Shown: positions 1 through 43,960 of the stretch, one piece after another
How the letters are laid out: every line of letters begins with the position of its first letter
Numbering within the stretch: position 1 is the first letter of the stretch
Origin: an uncultured Candidatus Rokubacteria bacterium
GTDB lineage: Bacteria; Methylomirabilota; Methylomirabilia; Rokubacteriales; CSP1-6
DNA: 64,000 bases
Assembly: GCA_963762145.1 (NCBI GenBank)
Contig: CAVXJS010000014.1
Span: 352,001-416,000 of the forward strand
Direction: 5' to 3'
The notes under the pieces: model-generated
Databases searched by the model: none
The model's input: the letters and a program-made list of their open reading frames with translations, nothing else
Told to the model about the DNA's origin: nothing
Made by a program: the position numbers and the translations under genes

Positions 1-956
1 AGCATCGGCACGAAGAACGACAGCGAGGTCACGAAGAGGCAGTAGCCGAGGAGCACCCACCGCCACGGGCCGAGTCGGACCATCCGGCGCTCGCCGCCCT
101 TGCCGGTCAGGGCCACGAACCCCTTCCGGGCGATGATCCGGTACTGCAGCCAGAACAGCCCGACCGTGATCAGGAGCAGTGGCATCGCGTAGGCCGCGGC
201 CACCTGCAGGCGCGGCGGGAACTCGAACATCTGCCAGAGCATCGTGGTCATGACCTGGAAGCGCGCGGGGAGGGCGATGAGGGCGGGGGTGCCGAAGAGC
301 GCGATCGCCTCGAGGAACTCCACGATGAAGGCGCCCATGATCGCGGGCAGCGCGAGCGGCAGGGTGACCCGCAGCGTGGTGCGGAGCGCGGAGGCGCCGA
401 GGGTGCTCGCCGCGTCCTCCATCTCCGAGGAGATCAGGTCGAGGGCGGAGCGCGTGAACACGAACATGTAGGGGAAGGAGTAGCAGGCGATGACGAGCAC
501 GAGCCCGGACATGGAGTAGATGTTGAACGGGCCGGCCGCGGCCCCGGTGAGCCCGGTGTAGATGCGGTTGAGCCAGCCCGCGTTGGGCCCGGCCATGAGG
601 ATCCACGCCACCGCGCCCAGGTAGTTCGGCATGATGAACGTACCGAGCACCGCGGCCCACACCAGGCCCTTGCCGGGCATGTCGGTGCGGGACACCGCCC
701 ACGCCATGGGCACCCCGAAGACGAGGCAGAGCGTCGCCGCGGCCAGGCCGACGACGAGCGAGTTGATCAGGGCTTCGATGTTGCGCCAGCGCCCGTAGGC
801 CGCCGCGTAGTTCTGGAGCGTGAAGGCGCCGGTCTCCGGATGCTCGAAGCTCGCCCACAGGAGGCGGGCGAGCGGGTTGACCACGAGCAGCAGCAGCAGC
901 GCGATCAGCAGCAGCCAGACGACGAGCGACCTGTCGAAGGACCGGTCAGATGCCAA
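1..956 (-). CDS. ABC transporter permease (Fe3+/thiamine/polyamine-type, FbpB-like), runs off the window edge
   Basis: Hand translation from a probable TTG at 956: MASDRSFDRSLVVWLLLIA..., many hydrophobic helices and an EAA loop (SSEMEDAASTLGASALRTTLRVTLP). Directly follows the binding-protein gene. Confidence 0.85.
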   Translation of the reverse strand, partial: MASDRSFDRSLVVWLLLIALLLLLVVNPLARLLWASFEHPETGAFTLQNYAAAYGRWRNIEALINSLVVGLAAATLCLVFGVPMAWAVSRTDMPGKGLVWAAVLGTFIMPNYLGAVAWILMAGPNAGWLNRIYTGLTGAAAGPFNIYSMSGLVLVIACYSFPYMFVFTRSALDLISSEMEDAASTLGASALRTTLRVTLPLALPAIMGAFIVEFLEAIALFGTPALIALPARFQVMTTMLWQMFEFPPRLQVAAAYAMPLLLITVGLFWLQYRIIARKGFVALTGKGGERRMVRLGPWRWVLLGYCLFVTSLSFFVPM

Positions 957-1995
957 AGGTCTCGCGGAAGAGCTCCTTGACCTCGGGGATGCCCTTCTCG
1001 ATCTCGACGGGGGTCGGCCGGATCGTCTTGATCTCCGCGATCGACTTGCCGCCCGCCATCGGCTTCACGTTCTTGTTCACCGGGTCCTGGTGCTGCTCCA
1101 CCATCACCTGGTTGCCGTCGCGGCCCAGCAGGTACTCCATGAAGAGCTTGGCCGCGTTGGGGGCGGGGGCGTTCTTGAGGATGCCGGAGGCCGAGACCAT
1201 CAGGACCGCCCCGTCTTCCGGATAGACCACCGCGAGCGGGTTGCCCTTGGCCTTGCTCTCCAGCGTGGTCGCCGACGGCCCCGCCGCCACGATGGACTCC
1301 TTCGCGTTCAGCATCGTCACGGTGTCGTTGATCGAGCGGCCGATGCGCGGCTTGTTCAGCTCGAGCTTCTTGAAATAGTCCCAGCCGTAGAGCTTCTTCA
1401 TCTGGACGACCCAGGTGCCCACGTAGCCGCTGAAGCCGGGATGACCGATCGAGACCTTGTTCTTCCACTTGGGGTCGGCGAGGTCGGTCCACTTCTTGGG
1501 GGCCTCCGAGGCCGAGACCACGCTGGTGTTGTAGGTGATCAGCACCAGGCCCGCCGCGGTCGCGATGAAGAGGTCCTCCGGATCGTTGAATGAGCGGAAC
1601 GCGTCCACCAGCTCGGGCAGGTTCTTGGGCTTGTAGGGCTGGAGCCACCCGTCCTGCTTCATCTTGGTGTAGTGGCTCTGGTCGGTGGAGCTGATCATGG
1701 AGGCCTGGGCGATGCCCGCCTTCTGGTCCTGGGCGAGCCGCTGGTAGGCCACCTGGGCGGTGGTGCGGATGTAGTTGCACTTCACGCCGGGGTACTTCTT
1801 CTCGAAGCCCTGGCAGAGTGCGGCCGCGGTCTCCGAGTTGTAGTGCGCGGTGTACCAGGTGAACTCCTTCTCCTTCTTGGCCGCCTCGTGGAGCGCCTTC
1901 TCGCCGTCGAAGGCCGCGGCGGCCCCGGCGGTGCCCAGGCCGAGCGCGACCGTCAAGGCGAGAGCTGCCAGCAGAGATCTCCGGATGGCCGTCAT
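946..1995 (-). CDS. ABC transporter extracellular solute-binding protein (Fe3+/AfuA-like family)
   Basis: C-terminal part of ORF 946..2319. ATG at 1995 gives signal peptide MTAIRRSLLAALALTVALGLGTAGAAAA; motifs APKKWTDLADPKWK and APAPNAAKLFMEYLL. Confidence 0.88.
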   Translation of the reverse strand: MTAIRRSLLAALALTVALGLGTAGAAAAFDGEKALHEAAKKEKEFTWYTAHYNSETAAALCQGFEKKYPGVKCNYIRTTAQVAYQRLAQDQKAGIAQASMISSTDQSHYTKMKQDGWLQPYKPKNLPELVDAFRSFNDPEDLFIATAAGLVLITYNTSVVSASEAPKKWTDLADPKWKNKVSIGHPGFSGYVGTWVVQMKKLYGWDYFKKLELNKPRIGRSINDTVTMLNAKESIVAAGPSATTLESKAKGNPLAVVYPEDGAVLMVSASGILKNAPAPNAAKLFMEYLLGRDGNQVMVEQHQDPVNKNVKPMAGGKSIAEIKTIRPTPVEIEKGIPEVKELFRETFGI

Positions 1996-2534
1996 GCGTC
2001 GTACCCCCCTTCGAGGACCGCGTGGCTGCGGGGACCCATCGGCGCCACGCCGAAGGTCCGGTGAAGCCGCCCGAGCATGATGAAGGCGCCGGTGATCAGC
2101 CCCAGCTCCACCAGCTCGCCGTCGGTGAAATGCGTGCGCATCTCCTTCATGAACGTGTCGTCGATCGCGGTGTGGTTCGCGGCGAGCTTCTGAGCGAAAT
2201 CCAGCGCGGCCCGCTCTCGCTCGGTCGGCTCCGTCTCCCCGCGGAGCTTCGGCAGCAGCTCGCGGTACAGTCCCGGCGCCCTCTCCGAGGGCTCGCGCGC
2301 GGTCGCTCAGCGCGCGCATTCGTTGAGCCCGGCGATCTTGAGCCGCACCAGCTCCTTCAGCGCGAAGGGAAGCCGCCCGCCGTACTTCGTGGGCCGGTAG
2401 AAGCGCAGGAAGGCCGCGAAGAGCTCGGGGCAGTGGCCGTAGATCCCGTACATCTCGTCGCCGGAGGCCTCCGCCATGCGGCGCAGCTCGGGATCGGCGA
2501 TCGCGTCGGGCGGCAGGACCTCGAGGCGGGCCAT
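1992..2534 (-). CDS. AhpD/carboxymuconolactone-decarboxylase-like protein, probable selenoprotein (CxxU), 180 aa
   Basis: ORF 2307..2534 ends ...LKELVRLKIAGLNECAR-TGA. The same frame stays open and CMD-like (ERERAALDFAQKLAANHTAIDDTFMKEMRTHFTDGELVELGLITGAFIMLGRLHRTF) to a TGA at 1992-1994 that overlaps the next ATG. The TGA replaces the second Cys of the AhpD CxxC motif. Confidence 0.85.
2278..2292 (-). promoter_or_regulatory. Candidate bacterial SECIS hairpin for the AhpD-like gene
   Basis: mRNA GCCCUC-GGA-GAGGGC, a 6-bp perfect stem with loop at +21..+23 after the UGA at 2307-2309. Confidence 0.6.
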
Positions 2535-2537
2535 CGG

Positions 2538-3365
2538 CTAGCGCCCGGTGAAGCGGGGCGCGCGCTTTTCCACGAAGTGGGCCACGCCCTCCTTGAAGTC
2601 CTCGCTGGTGAAGCTCTTCCGCATCTCTTCCTCGCCCACCGCGGTGGCTTCCGCCAGGCTCTGGAACTGCGCCTCCCAGATCTGGCGCTTCATGACCCGG
2701 AGCGAGCGGGGCGACACCAGGTCGGCCAGCTCGCGCGCGAAGGCCCGCACGTCCTCCTGGAGGGTGACGGCCGGCTTCACCTGGGAGACGAGGCCCATCG
2801 CGAGCGCCTCCGCCGCGGTGATCTTGCGCGCGGAGAGCAGCAGGTCGAGGCCGTGCTGCAGGCCCACCAGGCGGGGCAGCATCCAGCTCACCCCGTGCTC
2901 GGCGATGAGGCCGCGGCGCGAGAACGCGGTGGTGAAGACCGCGGTGTCGGCCGCGATGCGCAGATCGCAGTAGAGCGAGACCACGAGGCCGAGCCCGGCG
3001 GTCGCCCCGTTCAGCGCCGCGATGATCGGCTTGGGCACCGTCGGGAAGTAGGCGTAGGGGCCGCGGAAGTCCGGGCGCACCGCCGGGTCGCCGGCGGATT
3101 CACGCGCGGCCGCGGCTTCGCCGGGCTCCTGCCGACCCGTGCCCACGATCCCGGAGAGCAGCTGCATGTCCGCGCCCGCGCAGAACCCGCGGCCGGCGCC
3201 GGTCAGCACGATCACGCGCACCGCCTCGTCGCGCGCCGCCTCGTCCATGGCCTGCCGCACCTCGCGCCCCATCACCGCGGTCCATGCGTTCAGCTTGTCG
3301 GGCCGGTTCAGGGTGACGGTGGCGACGCGGTCCTTCACCTCGTACAGGATCTGCTCGTAGCCCAT
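2538..3365 (-). CDS. Enoyl-CoA hydratase/isomerase (crotonase) family protein
   Basis: TLNRPDKLNA, GAGRGFCAGADM, KPIIAALNG and EDFKEGVAHFVEKRAPRFTGR motifs. Confidence 0.95.
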   Translation of the reverse strand: MGYEQILYEVKDRVATVTLNRPDKLNAWTAVMGREVRQAMDEAARDEAVRVIVLTGAGRGFCAGADMQLLSGIVGTGRQEPGEAAAARESAGDPAVRPDFRGPYAYFPTVPKPIIAALNGATAGLGLVVSLYCDLRIAADTAVFTTAFSRRGLIAEHGVSWMLPRLVGLQHGLDLLLSARKITAAEALAMGLVSQVKPAVTLQEDVRAFARELADLVSPRSLRVMKRQIWEAQFQSLAEATAVGEEEMRKSFTSEDFKEGVAHFVEKRAPRFTGR

Positions 3366-3409
3366 GGTGAGCGCTCCCCCCGCGTGACGTGCCCCGCATG
3401 ATAGCCCAC

Positions 3410-3506
3410 GGGGTCAGGTCTTGAAATACGACATTTCGCGGCGGGGTCAGGTCTTACATTCCGACATTTCGACGCAGCGCGATGTCGTATTTCAAGACCT
3501 GACCCC
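3410..3506. repeat. Cluster of three REP-like 28-bp units (two direct, one inverted)
   Basis: GGGGTCAGGTCTTGAAATACGACATTTC 3410-3437; GGGGTCAGGTCTTACATTCCGACATTTC 3443-3470; reverse complement 3481-3506 overlapping the MFS stop codon. Confidence 0.9.
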
Positions 3507-4733
3507 AGATTCGCGGTCGATGGCGGGGCCCGCCAGGAGGGAGACGATCGCGACGAGGCCGGAGAGGACGGCGAAGACCGCCCAGGCGACCGCGTAGGAG
3601 TCGAAGCCCTCGAGGAGAAGGCCGAAGACGGGCGGGCCGACCAGGAGCCCCAGCACGATGGCGGCGAAGGCCACGCCGCTCAGGAGTCCGGCCTGGCTCC
3701 GGCCGCCGGCCTCCACGCTGATCACGAAGAAGATGCCGACCCAGCCGTAGGCGCCGACCCCGGTGGCGAAGGCGAGCGCGCCCGCCAGGCCGGCCGAGGA
3801 GGCGGGCCAGATCGCGTAGACCGCGAAGATGACCGCGCCCACCGCGCCGGTGAACGCGAGCCAGAGCGAGCGCCGCCCGGCGGCCCACCGATCGCTCGCC
3901 GCGCCCAGCACGAGGCGCGAGACCGCGCCGCCGGCCTGCGAGGCGGCCACGAGCAGGCCGGCGCCGATCTTGTCGAAGCCGAGCGCCTGGATCGTGAAGA
4001 GGGGCAGGTAGCTCAGCACCGCGCCCTGGACCATGCCGAGCCCCAGCCCGGTGGCGAAGAAGATGACCAGCGCGGGTCGCCGCGCCCACCACCAGCTCGA
4101 CACCGCGTCGCCCGGCCCGGCGATGGTGGCCGCGCCCCGCGCGCCCGCGTTGAAGGCGGCGAGCGGCCGCCAGCCGAGCGCGACCGGCACCGCCACGATC
4201 ACCGAGCACGCGCCGACCGCGTAGCGCCATCCCAGCGTGGCCGCGATCGCGGGCAGGGCGAGGGCCGCGACCAGACCGCCCAGCGTGAGCCCCATCTGCT
4301 TGACGCCCATCGCGATGCCGCGCTCGCTCACCGGGAAGACGTCCATGATGGCCTTGCCCAGCGCCGGGTTGACGACGCTCCACCCGCTGCCCGCCACGAA
4401 CAGACAGAAGAGGAAGGCGAGGAAGCCGGGCGCGAGCGCGGCCGCGAGCAATCCGACCGCGGCCACCGCGAGGCCGCCCAGGAACGACGGGCGCACCCCG
4501 AGGCGATCGGCGAGGCGGCCCCCGGGCAGCGAGAAGACGAGCCCGGAGAGATAGATGGACGGGACCAGGAAGGCGACCTGGAATCGGGTGAGCCCGAGCC
4601 CCTCCACGAGGCTCGGCGACAGCGGCGAGATGCCGAGCATGCCGAAGGCACCCGCGCCATAGGACACGGTGAGGATCGTCAGCAGGCGCCAGCGCCCCGT
4701 CGGCGCCGTCGGCGCGGGAGCGGTCTCGCTCAC
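3492..4733 (-). CDS. MFS transporter
   Basis: C-terminal part of ORF 3492..7937 from GTG 4733. About 12 hydrophobic segments, MFS motif A (GRLADRLGVR). Ends GVRS-stop inside the repeat. Confidence 0.9.
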   Translation of the reverse strand: MSETAPAPTAPTGRWRLLTILTVSYGAGAFGMLGISPLSPSLVEGLGLTRFQVAFLVPSIYLSGLVFSLPGGRLADRLGVRPSFLGGLAVAAVGLLAAALAPGFLAFLFCLFVAGSGWSVVNPALGKAIMDVFPVSERGIAMGVKQMGLTLGGLVAALALPAIAATLGWRYAVGACSVIVAVPVALGWRPLAAFNAGARGAATIAGPGDAVSSWWWARRPALVIFFATGLGLGMVQGAVLSYLPLFTIQALGFDKIGAGLLVAASQAGGAVSRLVLGAASDRWAAGRRSLWLAFTGAVGAVIFAVYAIWPASSAGLAGALAFATGVGAYGWVGIFFVISVEAGGRSQAGLLSGVAFAAIVLGLLVGPPVFGLLLEGFDSYAVAWAVFAVLSGLVAIVSLLAGPAIDRESGVRS

Positions 4734-7121
4734 TTGAGCCAGCGCCAGACTTGCTCCGGCGTGATCGGCAGCGAGCGGACCACCACGCCCAGGTGCGCGA
4801 GCGCGTCCTCCACCGCGTTCGCGACCGCGGCGGGGCCCGGGATCGCGCCGCCCTCGCCCACGCCCTTGGCGCCGAGCGGGGTGACCGGCGAGGGATGCTC
4901 GAGCCGGTCCACGTCGATGAGCGGCACGTCCACCGCGGTGGGCTTGAGATAGTCCATGAACGTCGAGGTGAGGAGCTGTCCCTGCGCGTCGTAGCGAAAC
5001 TCCTCGAGCAGCGCGGCGCCGATGCCGTGCGCGGTCGCGCCGTGCACCATGCCCTCGACGATCAGCGGGTTGAGCTCGCGGCCGCAGTCGTGCACCACCA
5101 GGTAGTCGAGGATCTTGACGAGCCCGGTGCGCGGATCCACCTCGACGAGGCAGCAGTGCGCCGCGTTGGAGAAGACGAGCTGGGAGCGCACGCGGCGCTC
5201 GCCATCGATCGGCTGCGCGAGCGGGTTCTGATGCGCGTGGCGGGCCTCGAGCCCCGGCTCCTCGCCGGGCGGCAGCCCGAGCACGTCGGCGTAGGCGGTG
5301 CGCGCCAGCTCCGCGAAGCCGAGCCGCCGGTCCGGCGCGCCGCGCACCGCGACCGCGCCGCCCCCCAGCTCGAGATCGGCGACCGCGGCCTCCAGGCGGT
5401 GCGCGGCGATGCGCAGCAGCTTGGCCCGCACGCGCGCGGCCGCGCCCACCACCGCGCCCACGTCGGTGACCGAGAACTTGTTGGAGTAGTTGCCGGAGAG
5501 GTAGAGCCAGGGCGTGGTCGCCGAGTCGAAGCCGCGGGCCACCGTGATCGCGTCGGGGGCGAGGCCGAGCTCGTCGGCCACGATCTGGGCGAGGACCGTC
5601 TCGTAGCCCTGGCCGCTCGGCGGATCGCCCAGGGATACCCGCACCTGGCCGTCGGGCTCCACGCGCACCATCGCCGCCTCCGCCGAGCCCGACGCGGCGC
5701 GCCGGCCGGTGACGATCTCGTAGGAGGCGAGGTTGGTGCCGGCCGGCTCTACCGAGGTGGCGATGCCGATACCGAGCAGCCGGCCCTCGCCGCGCGCGGC
5801 CGCCTGCTCGGCCCGGCGCCGCGGGTAGTCGAACCGCTCGACCGCGCGCCGCAAGGTCGCGGGGTAGTCGCCGCTGTCGTATCGGGCGCCCGGCGGTGTC
5901 GTGTAGGGCATCTGCTCGGCGGTCACGTAGTTGCGCTGCCGCAGCTCGGCCGGGTCCAGGCCGAGGCGCCGCGCCAGCAGCGCCATCGCGCGCTCGATCG
6001 CGAAGCACATGAACGGCTTGCCGATGCCGCGATTGGCCCCGCTCGGGCACTTGTTGGTCAGCACCGACCAGGCCTCGTAGCGCACCGCGGGGATCCGGTA
6101 GCCGTTGACGATGTTGCCGAGCTTGATCAGGTTGTGCTGGGTCGGGGTGATGAGGTTCTTGCCCTCGTCCGCGACGTCGCGCACCGCGAGGGCCAGCACG
6201 GTGCCGTCGTCCCGGTAGCCCAGCTCCACGTCCATGATCCCGTTGCACGCGTGCATCAGCGCGGTGAGGTTCTCGATCCGGTCCTCGATCCACTTCACGG
6301 GGCGGCCGGTCGCGCGCGCGAGCAGCGCGCAGATCAGCAGGTAGGCGGGGCGGCGCTTGTTGCCGAAGCCGCCGCCGATGTCGGGGCAGGCGAGCCGGAC
6401 CCGCGCCTGCGGCACGCCGAGCGAGGCGGCCAGCACCGAGATGGTGAGGCCCGGACGCTGGTCGTTGGTCCAGAACTCGTACCCGTCGGTGCCCGCGTCG
6501 TACTCCGCGATGCAGCCGAAGGTCTCGAGCGGGGTCGAGGCGTAGCGCTGGATCGTGAATCGCTCGCGCAGCACGCCGTCCGCGCGCGCCATCGCCTCGT
6601 CGACCGGGCCGTAGGTGAGCGTGTCGTGCCAGATCACGTTGGTGCCGAGCTGCGGGTAGAGGAGCGGCGCGCCGGGCGCGATGGCGGCTTCGGGATCCAC
6701 CACCGCCGGCAGCGGCTCGTACTCGACGCGGATCCGCTCGAGCGCGTCCTCCGCGGTCGCGCGGTCGACCGCAGCCACCGCGGCCACCGGCTCGCCCGCG
6801 TAGCGCGCGCGATCGACCGCCAGGCAGTGAGTCGGGCACCGCCGCGGTGGTGGGGATGAGCGGACGGATGGGGCCGGAGCGCGCGGCCGCCTCGGCGCCG
6901 GTCAGGACCGCGAAGACGCCGGGCATCGCCTCCGCCTCGCGCGTGTCGATCGCGACGATGCGCGCGTGGGCGTGCGGGCTGCGCAGCATGGCCGCGTGGA
7001 GCATCCGCGCGCGGCCGAGATCGTCCACGAAGCGGCCGCGCCCGGCGACGAGGCGCGCGTCCTCCTTGAGCGGCAGCGGCCGCCCGACCCAGCCCGCGCC
7101 CGGCGCCGTCTCGTGGCTCAC
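4730..7121 (-). CDS. Xanthine dehydrogenase/CoxL-family molybdopterin-binding large subunit (one frameshift near 6820)
   Basis: N-terminus VGRPLPLKEDARLVAGRGRFVDD...LRSPHAHARI in one frame, remainder in ORF 4730..6787 (GGGFGNK, GQGYET, AKGVGEGG). Active-site loop reads ANRGIGK. Confidence 0.9.
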
Positions 7122-7615
7122 GCGCGCGTTCCCGCCGCGCGCGCGGCGACCGCCTGCTCGACCGCGCGCACGATGTTGACGTAGCCGGTGCACATGCAGA
7201 GGTTGCCGGAGATCGCCTCGCGGAGGGCCTCGGTCGAGGGCGCGGGCTCCCGGGCCAGCAGCTCGGTGGTGGTCACGATCATGCCCGGCGTGCAGAAGCC
7301 GCACTGCATGGCGTGGCAGACGCGGAAGGACTCCTGGAGCGGGCTCAGGCCGTCGGGCGGCGTGAGGCCTTCGATCGTGGTCACCGCGCGGCCGTCGAGC
7401 TGCGCCGCGAAGAGCAGGCAGCTCCGCGCGCTCCGGCCGTCCACCAGCACCGTGCAGGCGCCGCAGACGCCGTGCTCGCAGCCCACGTGGGTGCCGGTGA
7501 GGCCGAGATCCTCCCGGAGGAAGTCGGCCAGCGAGCGGCGCGCCTCGACCACCTGCTCCACCGGGCGGCCGTTGACGGTGAAGCGCACCGCGATGCGCTC
7601 TCCCGGCGCGGTCAT
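7118..7615 (-). CDS. (2Fe-2S)-binding small subunit, CoxS-like
   Basis: GCEHGVCGACTV, QCGFCTPG and NLCMCTGY motifs; ATG at 7615. Confidence 0.95.
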   Translation of the reverse strand: MTAPGERIAVRFTVNGRPVEQVVEARRSLADFLREDLGLTGTHVGCEHGVCGACTVLVDGRSARSCLLFAAQLDGRAVTTIEGLTPPDGLSPLQESFRVCHAMQCGFCTPGMIVTTTELLAREPAPSTEALREAISGNLCMCTGYVNIVRAVEQAVAARAAGTRA

Positions 7616-8511
7616 CGCGCTCGTCCCGGAAGGCGCGCGGCGGCCTGGAGCAGGGCCCGCTCGGTGAGCACGGCGGCCAGATGCCGGCGATAGTCCGCCG
7701 AGCCGTGGACGTCGCTCGGCGGATCGCAGTCGGCGCCCGCCGCGGCGCCGGCGCGGGCCGCGCGGGCGGCGTCGAGGGGCGCGCCGGCCAGCAGCCGTTC
7801 CGCGCCGCTGAGCCGGACCGGCCGATCCCCGACGCCGAACCCCACCAGCCGCACCTCCCCCTCTCCCCCGCGAGGGGGAGAGGGCAGGGTGAGGGGACGG
7901 CGGTCGCGCAGGACGGCCACGACCCCGGCCAGCGCAAAGTCCCCGGGCCGCCGCGCGATCTCCACGAACCCCCACCCCGGCGGCTGCACCGGGACGTCGA
8001 TCGCGGTCAGGATCTCGTCGGCCTCGAGCGCGGTGGTGAGCAGCCCACGGAAGAACGCGTCCGCCGCGATCTCGCGCGGGCCGCGTGGGCCCGTGATCCG
8101 GACGCGCGCGTCGAGCGCCAGGAGCGTCGCGGGCAGCTCCGCGGCCGGATCGGCGTGCGCGAGGCTGCCGCCGAGGGTGCCCTGGTTGCGGATCGCGGCG
8201 TGGCCCACGTGGCGCGCGGCCTCGGCGAGGAGGGGCGCGCGCTCGATCACGGCCGGCGAGGCCGCGAGCTCGGCGTGGCGCGTGAGGGCGCCGAGGCGGA
8301 GCCCGCCGTCCGCGGTGGGCGTGATGCCGGTCAGCTCGCTCACGCGGTTGACGTCCAGCAGCACCGCGGGCCGCACGAGGCGCATGTTCAGCATCGGGAC
8401 CAGGCTCTGGCCGCCCGCGAGGAGCTTGGTGTCGGCGGGCGCCTCTGCGAGGAGCGCGAGCGCCTCGCCGAGGCTCTCCGCGCGCGCGTAGCGGAACCGG
8501 GCCGGCTTCAT
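7612..8511 (-). CDS. FAD-binding medium subunit, CoxM-like
   Basis: MKPARFRY, LAGGQSLVPMLNMRL and IRNQGTLGGSLAHADPAAE motifs. Confidence 0.95.
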   Translation of the reverse strand: MKPARFRYARAESLGEALALLAEAPADTKLLAGGQSLVPMLNMRLVRPAVLLDVNRVSELTGITPTADGGLRLGALTRHAELAASPAVIERAPLLAEAARHVGHAAIRNQGTLGGSLAHADPAAELPATLLALDARVRITGPRGPREIAADAFFRGLLTTALEADEILTAIDVPVQPPGWGFVEIARRPGDFALAGVVAVLRDRRPLTLPSPPRGGEGEVRLVGFGVGDRPVRLSGAERLLAGAPLDAARAARAGAAAGADCDPPSDVHGSADYRRHLAAVLTERALLQAAARLPGRAR

Positions 8512-41914: not shown

Positions 41915-43960
41915 GTGGGACGCTACCGGCTCGGCATCGACATCGGCGGGACGTTCACCGACTTCAGCCTCCTGGACGAGAGAACCGGCGAGCTCTCGAG
42001 CTTCAAGTCGCCGACCGTGCCGGGCGATCCCGCCCGGGGCGTCCTCGACGGCTTTCGCGCCCTCGTGGCGGAGCGGGGGTTCGACCCGGGGGCGCTCGAC
42101 TACCTGGTCCACGGCGCGACGATCGCCATCAACACCGTCATCCAGCGCAACGGCGCCTCGCTGGGGCTCCTGGTCACCGCGGGCTTCGGCGACGTGCTCG
42201 AGATCCAGCGGCTCCGGCTCGCGAGCCCGGTGAACTTCACGGCCACGCGCCCGCGGCCGCTCATCCCGCGCTACCGCGTGGGCGAGGTGACCGAGCGCAT
42301 CCTGACCGACGGCACCGTCGACACCCCGCTCGACCGCGCGGAGCTCCTGCGCGAGGCGACCCGGCTCGTCGAGCGGGAGGGCGCCGAGGCGCTCGTCGTC
42401 TCGTTCGTCAACGCCTACCGCACCCCCGCGCACGAGGCGGAAGCGCGCAAGGTCCTGGCGGAGCGCTTCCCCGGGCTCCACGTCACGTGCTCGCACGAGA
42501 TCTGGCCCCAGATCCGCGAGTACGAGCGCACGATGGTGGCCATCCTGAGCGCGTACGTGCGGCCGCGCGTGGATCAGTACCTGGGGCGGCTCGAGCGGGA
42601 GCTGGGCGGCGTTGGAGTGCGCGTGCCGCTGTACATCACGAAATCGAACGGCGGTGTGACCACCGCACGCGACGCGCGCCAGGCCACCGCGGAGACCATG
42701 CTGTCGGGCCCGGCCTCGGGTGTCATCGGTGCGACGCACGTCTGCGTCCGGGCCGGCTACCGCGACCTGATCACCTTCGACATGGGCGGCACCAGCGCCG
42801 ACATCGCCCTCGTGCGAGACGGCCGCCCGGTGTACTCGACCAGCGAGACGGTGGGCGACTTCCCGATCGTCATGCCGGTGGTCGGCGTGTCGTCGATCGG
42901 GGCGGGCGGCGGCTCCATCGCGTGGCTCGACCCGGTCGGGGTCTTGAAGGTCGGCCCGCGCAGCGCGGGCGCCGATCCGGGGCCCGCCTGCTACGGCCAT
43001 GGCGGGACCGAGCCGGCGCTGTCCGATGCCTTCCTCCTCTGCGGCTTCCTCAACCCCGACAACTTCGTCGGGGGCCGGCTTCGCCTCCATCCCGACCAGG
43101 CCGCGCGGGCCATGCGGCCGCTCGGCGAGGCGCTCGGCCTCGACGTGCACGAGACCGCCGAGGCGGTGATCGAGGTGGCCACCGCCAACATGTACGCGGC
43201 CTTCTCGAACGTGCTCGCCCGGCACGGACTCGACCCGCGCGACTTCGCCCTGGTCGCCTTCGGCGGCGCCGGCCCCATCGAGGCGTGCTTTCTGGCCGAG
43301 GAGTTCCACATCCCTCGCGTCATCGTGCCGCCGTCCCCGGGCACGCTCTGCGCGCAGGGCGCCATGATGGCTGACGTCAAGAGCGACTACGTGAAGACGA
43401 TTCACCGGAAGCTCTCCGCGACCTCGGGCAAGCTGCTCGCCGCCGAGTGCGCGGACCTGTCGGCGCGCGCGACGCGCTGGCTCCGCGAGGAGGCGCCCGC
43501 CGTCCCGGAGAGCACGATCGCTTACAGCGCGGACCTCCGCTACGTGGGGCAGGCCTTCCAGATCGAGGTGCCGATCGAGCCCGCGTGGCTGGAGGAGCCC
43601 GGCCCCGATCGTCTCCGGGACGCGTTCCACGATCTCCACGACCGCCTGTACGCCCACGCCGACCGCGCCGCCGACGTCGAGCTCATCGACCTACGCGCGA
43701 CGATCACCGGCGCCACCCCGAAGCCCGCCCTCCGGGCGGTCCCGAGCGGAGGCGGGCCGGCGACGCCGGCGGGGCAGCGCGCGATCCACTACCGCAAGCA
43801 GCGCCACCACGCCGCGGTGTACCACCGGGGCGACCTCCTGGCTGGCCAGCATCTCGTTGGCCCCGCCGTCGTCGAACAGGAGGACACGACCACGCTGGTG
43901 CCGGCGGGCTTCCGCGCCACCGTCGACGCGTTCGGCAACCTCGTCATCGAGGCTGCGTAG
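41915..43960 (+). CDS. Hydantoinase/oxoprolinase A subunit (ATP-binding)
   Basis: DIGGTFTD, SGPASG, DMGGTS, GAGGGSI, GPRSAGADPGP and RYVGQ. Confidence 0.95.
   Translation: MGRYRLGIDIGGTFTDFSLLDERTGELSSFKSPTVPGDPARGVLDGFRALVAERGFDPGALDYLVHGATIAINTVIQRNGASLGLLVTAGFGDVLEIQRLRLASPVNFTATRPRPLIPRYRVGEVTERILTDGTVDTPLDRAELLREATRLVEREGAEALVVSFVNAYRTPAHEAEARKVLAERFPGLHVTCSHEIWPQIREYERTMVAILSAYVRPRVDQYLGRLERELGGVGVRVPLYITKSNGGVTTARDARQATAETMLSGPASGVIGATHVCVRAGYRDLITFDMGGTSADIALVRDGRPVYSTSETVGDFPIVMPVVGVSSIGAGGGSIAWLDPVGVLKVGPRSAGADPGPACYGHGGTEPALSDAFLLCGFLNPDNFVGGRLRLHPDQAARAMRPLGEALGLDVHETAEAVIEVATANMYAAFSNVLARHGLDPRDFALVAFGGAGPIEACFLAEEFHIPRVIVPPSPGTLCAQGAMMADVKSDYVKTIHRKLSATSGKLLAAECADLSARATRWLREEAPAVPESTIAYSADLRYVGQAFQIEVPIEPAWLEEPGPDRLRDAFHDLHDRLYAHADRAADVELIDLRATITGATPKPALRAVPSGGGPATPAGQRAIHYRKQRHHAAVYHRGDLLAGQHLVGPAVVEQEDTTTLVPAGFRATVDAFGNLVIEAA

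Follow-up and report, generated by a model that had tools for sequence, protein, structure and literature searches.

A predicted selenocysteine-containing AhpD-like protein in a Rokubacteria genome

Introduction

Two bacterial selenoprotein families with a CxxU redox motif, in which selenocysteine (Sec, U) holds the second position, were described from the Sargasso Sea in 2005 as the 'AhpD-like protein' (COG2128, 27 sequences) and the 'CMD domain-containing protein' (Pfam02627) (Zhang, Fomenko and Gladyshev, PMC1088965). The Global Ocean Sampling data of 2008 yielded 299 sequences of 'AhpD-like 1' and 70 of 'AhpD-like 2' (Zhang and Gladyshev, PMC2398784), and AhpD-related CxxU families number four in a 2026 review, which also mentions, citing Deng et al. 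2026, a Methylomirabilota metagenome-assembled genome predicted to hold 63 selenoprotein genes (PMC13188914). This phylum is reported to be rich in selenoproteins. Here we describe a gene of this kind in a 64,000-nucleotide (nt) stretch of DNA from an uncultured Candidatus Rokubacteria bacterium (contig CAVXJS010000014.1, positions 352,001 to 416,000; called the window below). The gene is interrupted by an in-frame UGA and very probably encodes one intact AhpD-like redox protein of 180 residues with the motif C-A-R-U. An earlier reading of the same DNA, made from the letters alone (the sequence-only reading), had proposed this protein and taken it for a novelty; the novelty falls away, since AhpD-like and CMD selenoproteins with CxxU have been in print since 2005 (PMC1088965, PMC2398784). 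Such selenoproteins are already known, and the window gene is a further member, at most a new subfamily.

As those sources describe them, the AhpD-like (COG2128/TIGR01926) and CMD (PF02627) families share with the window protein the motif with Sec second, the fold family, a selenocysteine insertion sequence (SECIS) directly 3' of the UGA with a G in its small apical loop, and widespread Cys forms. Unlike them, the group to which the window protein belongs scores below the TIGR01926 and Pfam CMD cut-offs, has Arg in place of a His, and comes from soil Rokubacteria/Methylomirabilota rather than from marine samples. The best NCBIfam match of the window protein is NF053654, 'YciW-related (seleno)protein', of which a C-E-F-U paralogue in the same genome is a true member; the window protein belongs to another paralogue class, with C-A-R-U followed by AREPSERAPGLY. 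As judged from its sequence, what is specific to it is the Arg that replaces the proton-relay His, together with the lack of any NCBIfam model that it matches at cut-off.

By profile, the closest solved relative is PA0269 of Pseudomonas aeruginosa (2o4d, 2ijc), an AhpD-like protein for which weak peroxidase activity is reported (PMC3141380). The two share an ELV...NxC-x-x-C helix-turn-helix with a Glu 12 residues before the first Cys, and they differ in that PA0269 has Cys51 at the place of Sec76 and His55 at the place of Arg80, and an N-terminus about 35 residues shorter. Mycobacterium tuberculosis (Mtb) AhpD, which reduces AhpC via Cys130/Cys133, has its CxxC pair on the same helix motif as the window protein, with another topology and very low overall identity, according to the structural account of the family (PMC3141380). 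The debrominase Bmp8 (6ohi, 6ohj) has the same fold (Foldseek TM 0.71, profile E = 5e-11) at 17-18% identity, and it demonstrates that small molecules, rather than peroxiredoxins, can be the substrates of AhpD-like proteins.

Reading frame, orthologs and Cys forms

The complete gene occupies 1992..2534 on the minus strand, with 180 codons and a terminal TGA at 1994..1992. An open reading frame (ORF) of 75 codons, 2534..2310 (minus) with its ATG at 2534, ends at the TGA 2309..2307 directly after the residues L-N-E-C-A-R, codons 72-75 being E-C-A-R; both the sequence and its translation agree with the first description of this ORF as stopping at a TGA after NECAR. When this TGA is read as U, the frame stays open over codons 77-180, a continuation of 104 codons. 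It ends at the second TGA, which sits within GCATGACGG, where the ATG (1995..1993) of a solute-binding protein gene overlaps the selenoprotein stop as ATGA. Both the open continuation and this overlap had been part of the original proposal and are found in the sequence as proposed. The UGA is thus codon 76 (2307..2309, minus) and takes the second position of a C-x-x-C-type redox motif, C73-A-R-U76. On the same strand lie the codons of Cys73, the first residue of the motif (2316..2318); of Glu61, 12 residues before it (2352..2354), which aligns with the ELV motif of PA0269; and of Arg80, four residues after Sec (2295..2297), which a profile alignment places at the relay-His position of AhpD-like proteins. 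Cys73 and Glu61 are invariant in an alignment of 32 sequences (A4).

A six-frame search covered the window's own genome and 40 relatives, 41 in all; it returned 11 loci at 65-99% identity, the window locus included. Three more orthologs, at 72% identity, came from a scan of GTDB species genomes. All 14 genome orthologs (65-92% identity) have TGA at the same codon, in the motif C-x-R-U, after which comes a near-invariant peptide, AREPSE[RK]APGLY. A further 25 metagenome loci were fetched, four of which were left out for lack of a clean N-terminus; the DNA of the other 21 has the TGA in every case. The codon is thus kept in 35/35 orthologs overall, which do not amount to 35 independent events. 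None of the orthologs above 60% identity carries Cys at the Sec position, and the ortholog proteins run to 178-183 residues in the same frame. Over 91 pairs among the 14 genome orthologs, the ratio of nonsynonymous to synonymous substitution (dN/dS) is 0.20 for the codons before the TGA, 0.17 across the 14 that also encode the hairpin described below and 0.36 downstream. The last value indicates that the downstream frame is constrained, and therefore that the second half is translated in the same frame. A conserved start codon after the TGA was not found among the orthologs.

Comparison with AhpD/CMD homologues had been suggested as a check on whether Cys aligns with the TGA, and it does. The nearest full-length homologues without the stop are P0043 with C-Q-R-C (49% identity) and P0044 with C-E-R-C (47%). 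More distant proteins annotated as 'AhpD family alkylhydroperoxidase' have CxxC, with Cys at the Sec position in P0009, P0010, P0013, P0014, P0016, P0025 and P0030, and two paralogues from the window's own genome, CRYC and CAHC, have Cys aligned with the UGA. These Cys-form homologues are single proteins of 170-200 residues. The proposal would have been weakened by homologues that were consistently two genes with starts of their own; what the public gene calls contain instead are fragments, which end at residue 75 or start at residues 80-89. Two records from the Joint Genome Institute (JGI), P0002 and P0003 (65-66% identity, a sister clade), have a W where Sec is expected. This W is most likely an artefact of translation and not a Trp variant, because 21/21 related metagenome contigs (from loci L058-L082) have TGA, not TGG.

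On the sequence evidence, we hold with high confidence that the TGA 2309..2307 is decoded as Sec, to give one intact AhpD-like redox protein of 180 residues. The view that a single AhpD/CMD-like C-A-R-U protein has been split by ORF callers is supported by every test that was run.

A predicted SECIS hairpin directly 3' of the UGA

A hairpin, GAGCCCUC-GGA-GAGGGCGC, starts 12 nt after the UGA and occupies 2276..2294 (minus), with an 8-bp stem that includes one A.G mismatch and a GGA loop at 2286..2284. Its core is six base pairs, GCCCUC/GAGGGC, which join 2292..2287 with 2283..2278; the loop lies 20 nt after the UGA and the fold energy is -10.5 kcal/mol. A hairpin GCCCUC-GGA-GAGGGC with its loop at +21..+23 had been pointed out before, and it is present at 2292..2278. 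The bacterial SECIS (bSECIS) model, as given in the 2026 review, calls for a loop of 3-9 nt, a stem of 4-16 bp, a G in the first two loop positions, a distance of 16-37 nt from the UGA and a minimum free energy of at most -7.5 kcal/mol (PMC13188914). The window hairpin satisfies this model in its GGA loop, its 6-bp stem (8 bp with one mismatch), its spacing of 20 nt and its energy. The prediction suggested as a check on the selenoprotein was made by applying these published criteria to the window hairpin and its relatives, and 36/37 orthologs and paralogues pass, their loops lying 17-20 nt 3' of the UGA.

The stems that pass comprise nine unrelated sequences: gccctc/gagggc, gagccttc/gaaggctc, tatgccgg/ccggcatg, ctcatcc/ggatgag, gcatcc/ggatgc (two of its three members add a t-a pair), gctgcc/ggcagc, gcgcatc/g[ga]tgcgc, tccgtcc/ggacgga and acggagc/gctccgt. 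The sole failing sequence, L014 (cgcctt/aaggcg), has a six-pair stem of -6.2 kcal/mol. Across paralogue classes, in 25 of the 37 sequences picked by eye for a shared hairpin register, both partners vary in 8/8 pairs, and 91% of cells are paired; as a control, sliding the 3' partners by 1-3 columns lowers the paired cells to 34-55%. The 12 sequences outside this set form the same kind of hairpin, with a loop that begins 2-3 nt earlier. Within the ortholog group, CCCUC/GAGGG alternates with CCUUC/GAAGG, and L012 and some members of the metagenome clade have an A-U pair in place of the A.G mismatch of the stem. The evidence from the hairpin lies in this conservation, and at the level of sequence we regard the comparative picture as decisive.

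Sec machinery and paralogues in the genome

The presence of selA, selB, selC and selD had been named as a requirement to check, and the genome has all of them. The selA gene lies at C9:753893-754987 (500 bits) and selB at G000:C9:751777-753660 (363 bits, cut-off 242). The tRNA-Sec(UCA) gene, at C9:756629-756726, was identified both by ARAGORN and by Rfam RF01852 (69.3 bits, threshold 47) and is located 1.6 kb from selA. There are two selD genes, G000:C11:419505-420437 (L024) and G000:C14:136744-137655 (L025), one with an in-frame TGA, which marks it as a Sec-form selenophosphate synthetase, and the other without.

The window gene also has company within its genome. CxxU is carried by six of the eight AhpD-like matches, as C-A-R-U, C-R-Y-U, C-V-H-U, C-P-F-U and, twice, C-E-F-U, and CxxC by the other two. 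The five CxxU paralogues, at G000:C14:582793-583326, C9:331039-331542, C21:984307-984672, C9:213022-213495 and C21:1067802-1068305, each have a hairpin sequence of their own after the TGA. Over the 41 genomes, at least one in-frame TGA was found in 111 of the 150 rows listed; its position was verified in 40 of 43 loci, which gave C-x-x-TGA with open flanks. When four of the own-genome paralogue classes were scanned against NCBIfam, only C-E-F-U (C9:213022-213495) reached a cut-off, that of NF053654. In a scan of eight classes (seven paralogue classes and one ortholog of the window gene at 72% identity), the curated cut-off was reached only by C-E-F-U (NF053654, 337 against 310) and C-T-Y-U (TIGR01926, 227.6 against 81.8); the paralogues L049 and L041 exceed NCBIfam cut-offs.

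Public protein sets systematically present the window gene and its paralogues as pieces, divided at the Sec codon. These fragments and W records, together with the small number of NCBIfam matches, mean that the selenoproteomes of such genomes are therefore under-reported.

Fold and active site

A profile built from the 32 homologues of A4 matches 17 solved AhpD/CMD chains in the PDB. PA0269 (2o4d, E = 6.6e-24) and Atu0492 lead the list, and peroxidase-related proteins and the debrominase Bmp8 come next. Most of the Cys-form homologues (P0009-P0042) carry a precomputed match to PF02627. An AlphaFold2 model of the read-through sequence, made on the A4 alignment, is a single all-helical domain with a mean pLDDT of 90.8. 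In a Foldseek search with this model, TM was 0.74 to Deinococcus radiodurans AhpD 6k40, and all 18 rows listed to E = 1.7e-3 are AhpD/CMD-family structures. In the conserved helical hairpin, C73-A-R-U76 sits where the second helix starts, at residue 74 in the model. Glu61 aligns with the proton-relay Glu of PA0269, Glu36, which likewise stands 12 residues before the first Cys, Cys48.

The active site departs from that of its solved relatives at one position. In AhpD-like proteins the proton relay is described as Glu, Cys, Cys and His, with the His invariant in six structures (PMC3141380). In the window group Arg80 stands in place of this His, the profile reading C-a-a-C-k-a-a-r where PA0269 has C-A-Y-C-V-N-M-H, and Arg at this position is common to the Sec forms and to the closest Cys-form homologues. 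We therefore class the protein as having an AhpD-like fold and not as a canonical AhpD. In biological terms, it represents one extra Arg-for-His subfamily among the CxxU AhpD-like proteins, which have expanded greatly and in a lineage-specific manner in Rokubacteria/Methylomirabilota. The value of the finding lies in a corrected annotation and in the Arg-for-His variation; no new principle is involved. Membership in NF053654 or TIGR01926 was considered and rejected on score.

Alternative readings of the UGA

Several points weigh against a Sec-containing AhpD-like protein. The TGA, in the window and in its relatives, is read from assemblies, and the assembly has at least one probable indel error close by. 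Many of the orthologs are close kin, and some of the metagenome loci hardly differ in the stretch examined. With regard to the hairpin, 595 of 4847 other in-frame positions of the same GC-rich genes (12%) pass the bSECIS criteria, and the energy is unexceptional in DNA of 70% GC (z = -1.46 and +0.46 against shuffles); because z is not significant and the background pass rate is 12%, folding energy was dropped as evidence for a SECIS. The choice by eye of 25 of the 37 sequences for the covariation count inflates the percentage of paired cells, and the hairpin matched no Rfam family at E up to 10. With regard to the protein, the single sequence scores 22.3 bits with Pfam CMD (PF02627), below the gathering score of 23, over model positions 1-42 of 84. 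It also misses the NCBIfam cut-offs (TIGR01926, 28.7 against 81.8; NF053654, 28.9 against 310). Finally, with Arg in place of the invariant relay His, canonical AhpD chemistry is not assured.

Two of the alternatives take the TGA for a genuine end of translation. It may be a true stop that leaves a pseudogene or a 75-residue N-terminal fragment, the downstream frame being a remnant. Translation table 11 does give the 75-residue ORF, the public fragments P0048 and P0050 end at residue 75, and chance leaves long frames open in high-GC DNA, as a spurious ORF of 1481 residues close by illustrates. However, the 104 downstream codons are conserved in frame, at the dN/dS of 0.36 given above, in 14 genomes and down to 65% identity. 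The AhpD fold requires both halves, and in over 35 orthologs and five other paralogue classes the nonsense codon would have to coincide exactly with the position of the catalytic Cys. We consider a true stop highly improbable. The same region could also hold two genes, a 75-residue N-terminal protein and an independently initiated C-terminal one, as some gene callers suggest when they begin a second ORF at V/M-REPSE... (P0045, P0068, P0004). These called 'starts' lie inside the SECIS stem and lack a conserved ATG, the window having GCG-CGC-GAG there. Moreover, the two parts share one frame without a spacer in 35/35 orthologs, and the Cys-form homologues are single proteins of 170-200 residues, so that we give a pair of genes next to no credence.

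The other two accept one reading frame and dispute the Sec. The UGA might be translated as another amino acid (Trp, Cys or Gly), whether through near-cognate read-through or in a reassigned code, and the W in the JGI records P0002 and P0003 would fit with this. Sec insertion is incomplete under selenium scarcity, which also counts for such read-through. Against it, the relatives of the W records have TGA and not TGG in 21/21 cases, and the covarying SECIS hairpin is accompanied by a full Sec machinery. In addition, TGA terminates five of the six neighbouring genes checked, as well as the selenoprotein gene itself; TGA is thus the usual stop here and is therefore not reassigned in this genome. 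Read-through to an amino acid other than Sec is very unlikely. Lastly, the TGA of the window might be an assembly or sequencing error for TGC or TGT, a suspicion nourished by the 1-base insertion at about 6829, which has no counterpart in 5/5 relatives. The same TGA is nevertheless present in separate records from 13 other genomes and 21 metagenome contigs, and Cys is absent from the position in all orthologs above 60% identity; the chance of such an error is accordingly minute. Decoding of the UGA as Sec remains by far the most probable of these readings.

Possible redox cycle and function

The genome's own SelB and tRNA-Sec very probably decode the UGA, recruited by the mRNA hairpin 2294..2276, and Sec76 takes the place of the second Cys of CxxC. 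Sec usually replaces the attacking nucleophile. In Mtb AhpD, Cys133 and not Cys130 is reported to cross-link with AhpC, the first Cys being partly buried (PMC6626918). By analogy, Sec76 may be the attacking residue, because in Mtb AhpD the attack on the partner comes from the second Cys of the motif. The Sec76 selenolate would attack an oxidised partner, Cys73 would resolve the mixed bond to form an intramolecular selenenyl-sulfide, and re-reduction would restore the selenol/thiol form. We infer from this analogy a redox cycle between selenol/thiol and selenenyl-sulfide, in which an oxidised thiol peroxidase or a small-molecule substrate would receive the reducing equivalents.

A general redox role and a pathway-specific one appear equally likely. 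The C-x-R-U...R80 group could conceivably be a distinct, uncurated subfamily, with Arg for the relay His, that acts as a selenol reductase on a small-molecule or CoA-linked intermediate instead of a peroxiredoxin, as Bmp8 does on its small molecules, and that was recruited through translational coupling to a crotonase/ABC-importer operon in one Rokubacteria genus; we regard this as a doubtful proposal. The window evidence holds no pointer to halogenated substrates of the kind that Bmp8 acts on.

Gene neighbourhood

The selenoprotein gene lies in a co-directional run on the minus strand. Immediately upstream is an enoyl-CoA hydratase (crotonase) gene (2538..3365; Pfam ECH_1, 179 bits; NCBIfam NF004857, 383.8 against a cut-off of 341), whose TAG stop is 3 nt before the selenoprotein ATG. 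Downstream are the gene for the ATP-binding cassette (ABC) solute-binding protein (946..1995; Pfam SBP_bac_6, 106 bits; NCBIfam phnS2-like, 113.5, below cut-off) and an ABC permease gene that runs off the window (3..956; Pfam BPD_transp_1; NCBIfam PhnU-like, below cut-off). Further upstream, the co-directional genes together span 3492..8511 (minus). Pfam and NCBIfam identify them as the genes for three subunits of a xanthine-dehydrogenase-family enzyme, namely the FAD-binding subunit (8511..7612), the 2Fe-2S subunit (about 7600..7118) and the molybdenum cofactor (MoCo) large subunit, frameshifted near 6829 (about 7100..4730), and a major facilitator superfamily (MFS) transporter gene (about 4700..3492). 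The run of molybdo-hydroxylase, MFS, crotonase and ABC importer genes that the sequence-only reading had recognised is therefore confirmed by the Pfam scan of the neighbours. The crotonase, Sec and solute-binding protein genes are probably translated as a unit, because the first two are separated by 3 nt and the last two overlap as ATGA. The Pfam neighbour scan found no ahpC or lipoamide-system gene adjoining the selenoprotein gene.

The conservation of this arrangement was compared between loci. The order FAD-binding, 2Fe-2S, MoCo, MFS, crotonase, Sec gene, solute-binding protein and permease is found in 9 of the 12 loci of the GTDB scan, these nine being at 81-92% identity, as far as the contigs reach. 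It is missing around two orthologs at 72% identity, L036, which adjoins luciferase-like monooxygenases, and L037, which adjoins a carboxyl transferase and an amidohydrolase; the contig of L035 is too short to tell. Within the DNA around each locus, none of the window's neighbours is found beside L012 or the 25 metagenome loci (46-75% identity), one of which has only an ABC exporter upstream and another nothing recognisable. A tie to a specific catabolic pathway had been proposed from the neighbours, and it does not hold up, as only the closest clade retains the gene order. Any connection with a single catabolic pathway is weak and reflects a genus-level arrangement, not a property of the family; conserved gene context was likewise rejected as a functional clue, since the order is lost in more distant orthologs.

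The sequence-only reading had also seen no indels around the gene. That stands for the selenoprotein gene and fails for the run, in which the MoCo large-subunit gene has a 1-base insertion at about 6829 (within 6780-6900, minus), where the window has GACTCACTG and 5/5 relatives have GACT-ACTG. The insertion shifts the frame, leaving the N-terminal hammerhead domain at 7697..6831 and the MoCo-binding domains in another frame at 6838..4733, and would be either an assembly error or the mark of a recent pseudogene. In the closest relative contig (L026, 92% identity), the FAD-binding, MoCo, MFS, crotonase and solute-binding protein genes align in two or three pieces each. This suggests that the L026 assembly has several frameshifts; its selenoprotein gene is unbroken.

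ARAGORN also called a 98-nt 'tRNA-Thr(CGU)' at 42373-42470 (minus), with mismatches in the acceptor stem and no Rfam tRNA match at E up to 1, which is probably a false positive in GC-rich DNA. Five other long ARAGORN tRNA calls in the genome are without Rfam support and probably false as well; the tRNA-Sec, used as the control, scored 69.3 bits.

Between the MFS and crotonase genes lies a palindromic repeat that resembles repetitive extragenic palindromic (REP) elements (3380..3500, with no strand assigned); the 12-mer GAATGTAAGACC occurs 45 times in the 6.26-Mb genome. Its sequence reads ...GGGGTCAGGTCTT...AAGACCTGACCCC..., and Rfam gave only sub-threshold chance matches to it, at 3408-3508 (MIR5084 and SECIS_3). 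We infer that the palindrome probably divides two transcription units, the crotonase, Sec and solute-binding protein genes on one side and the MFS and hydroxylase genes on the other. The element also occurs beside paralogous selenoprotein genes in relatives, at L003:540-640, L005:560-620, L015:2090-2130 and L019:2030-2060.

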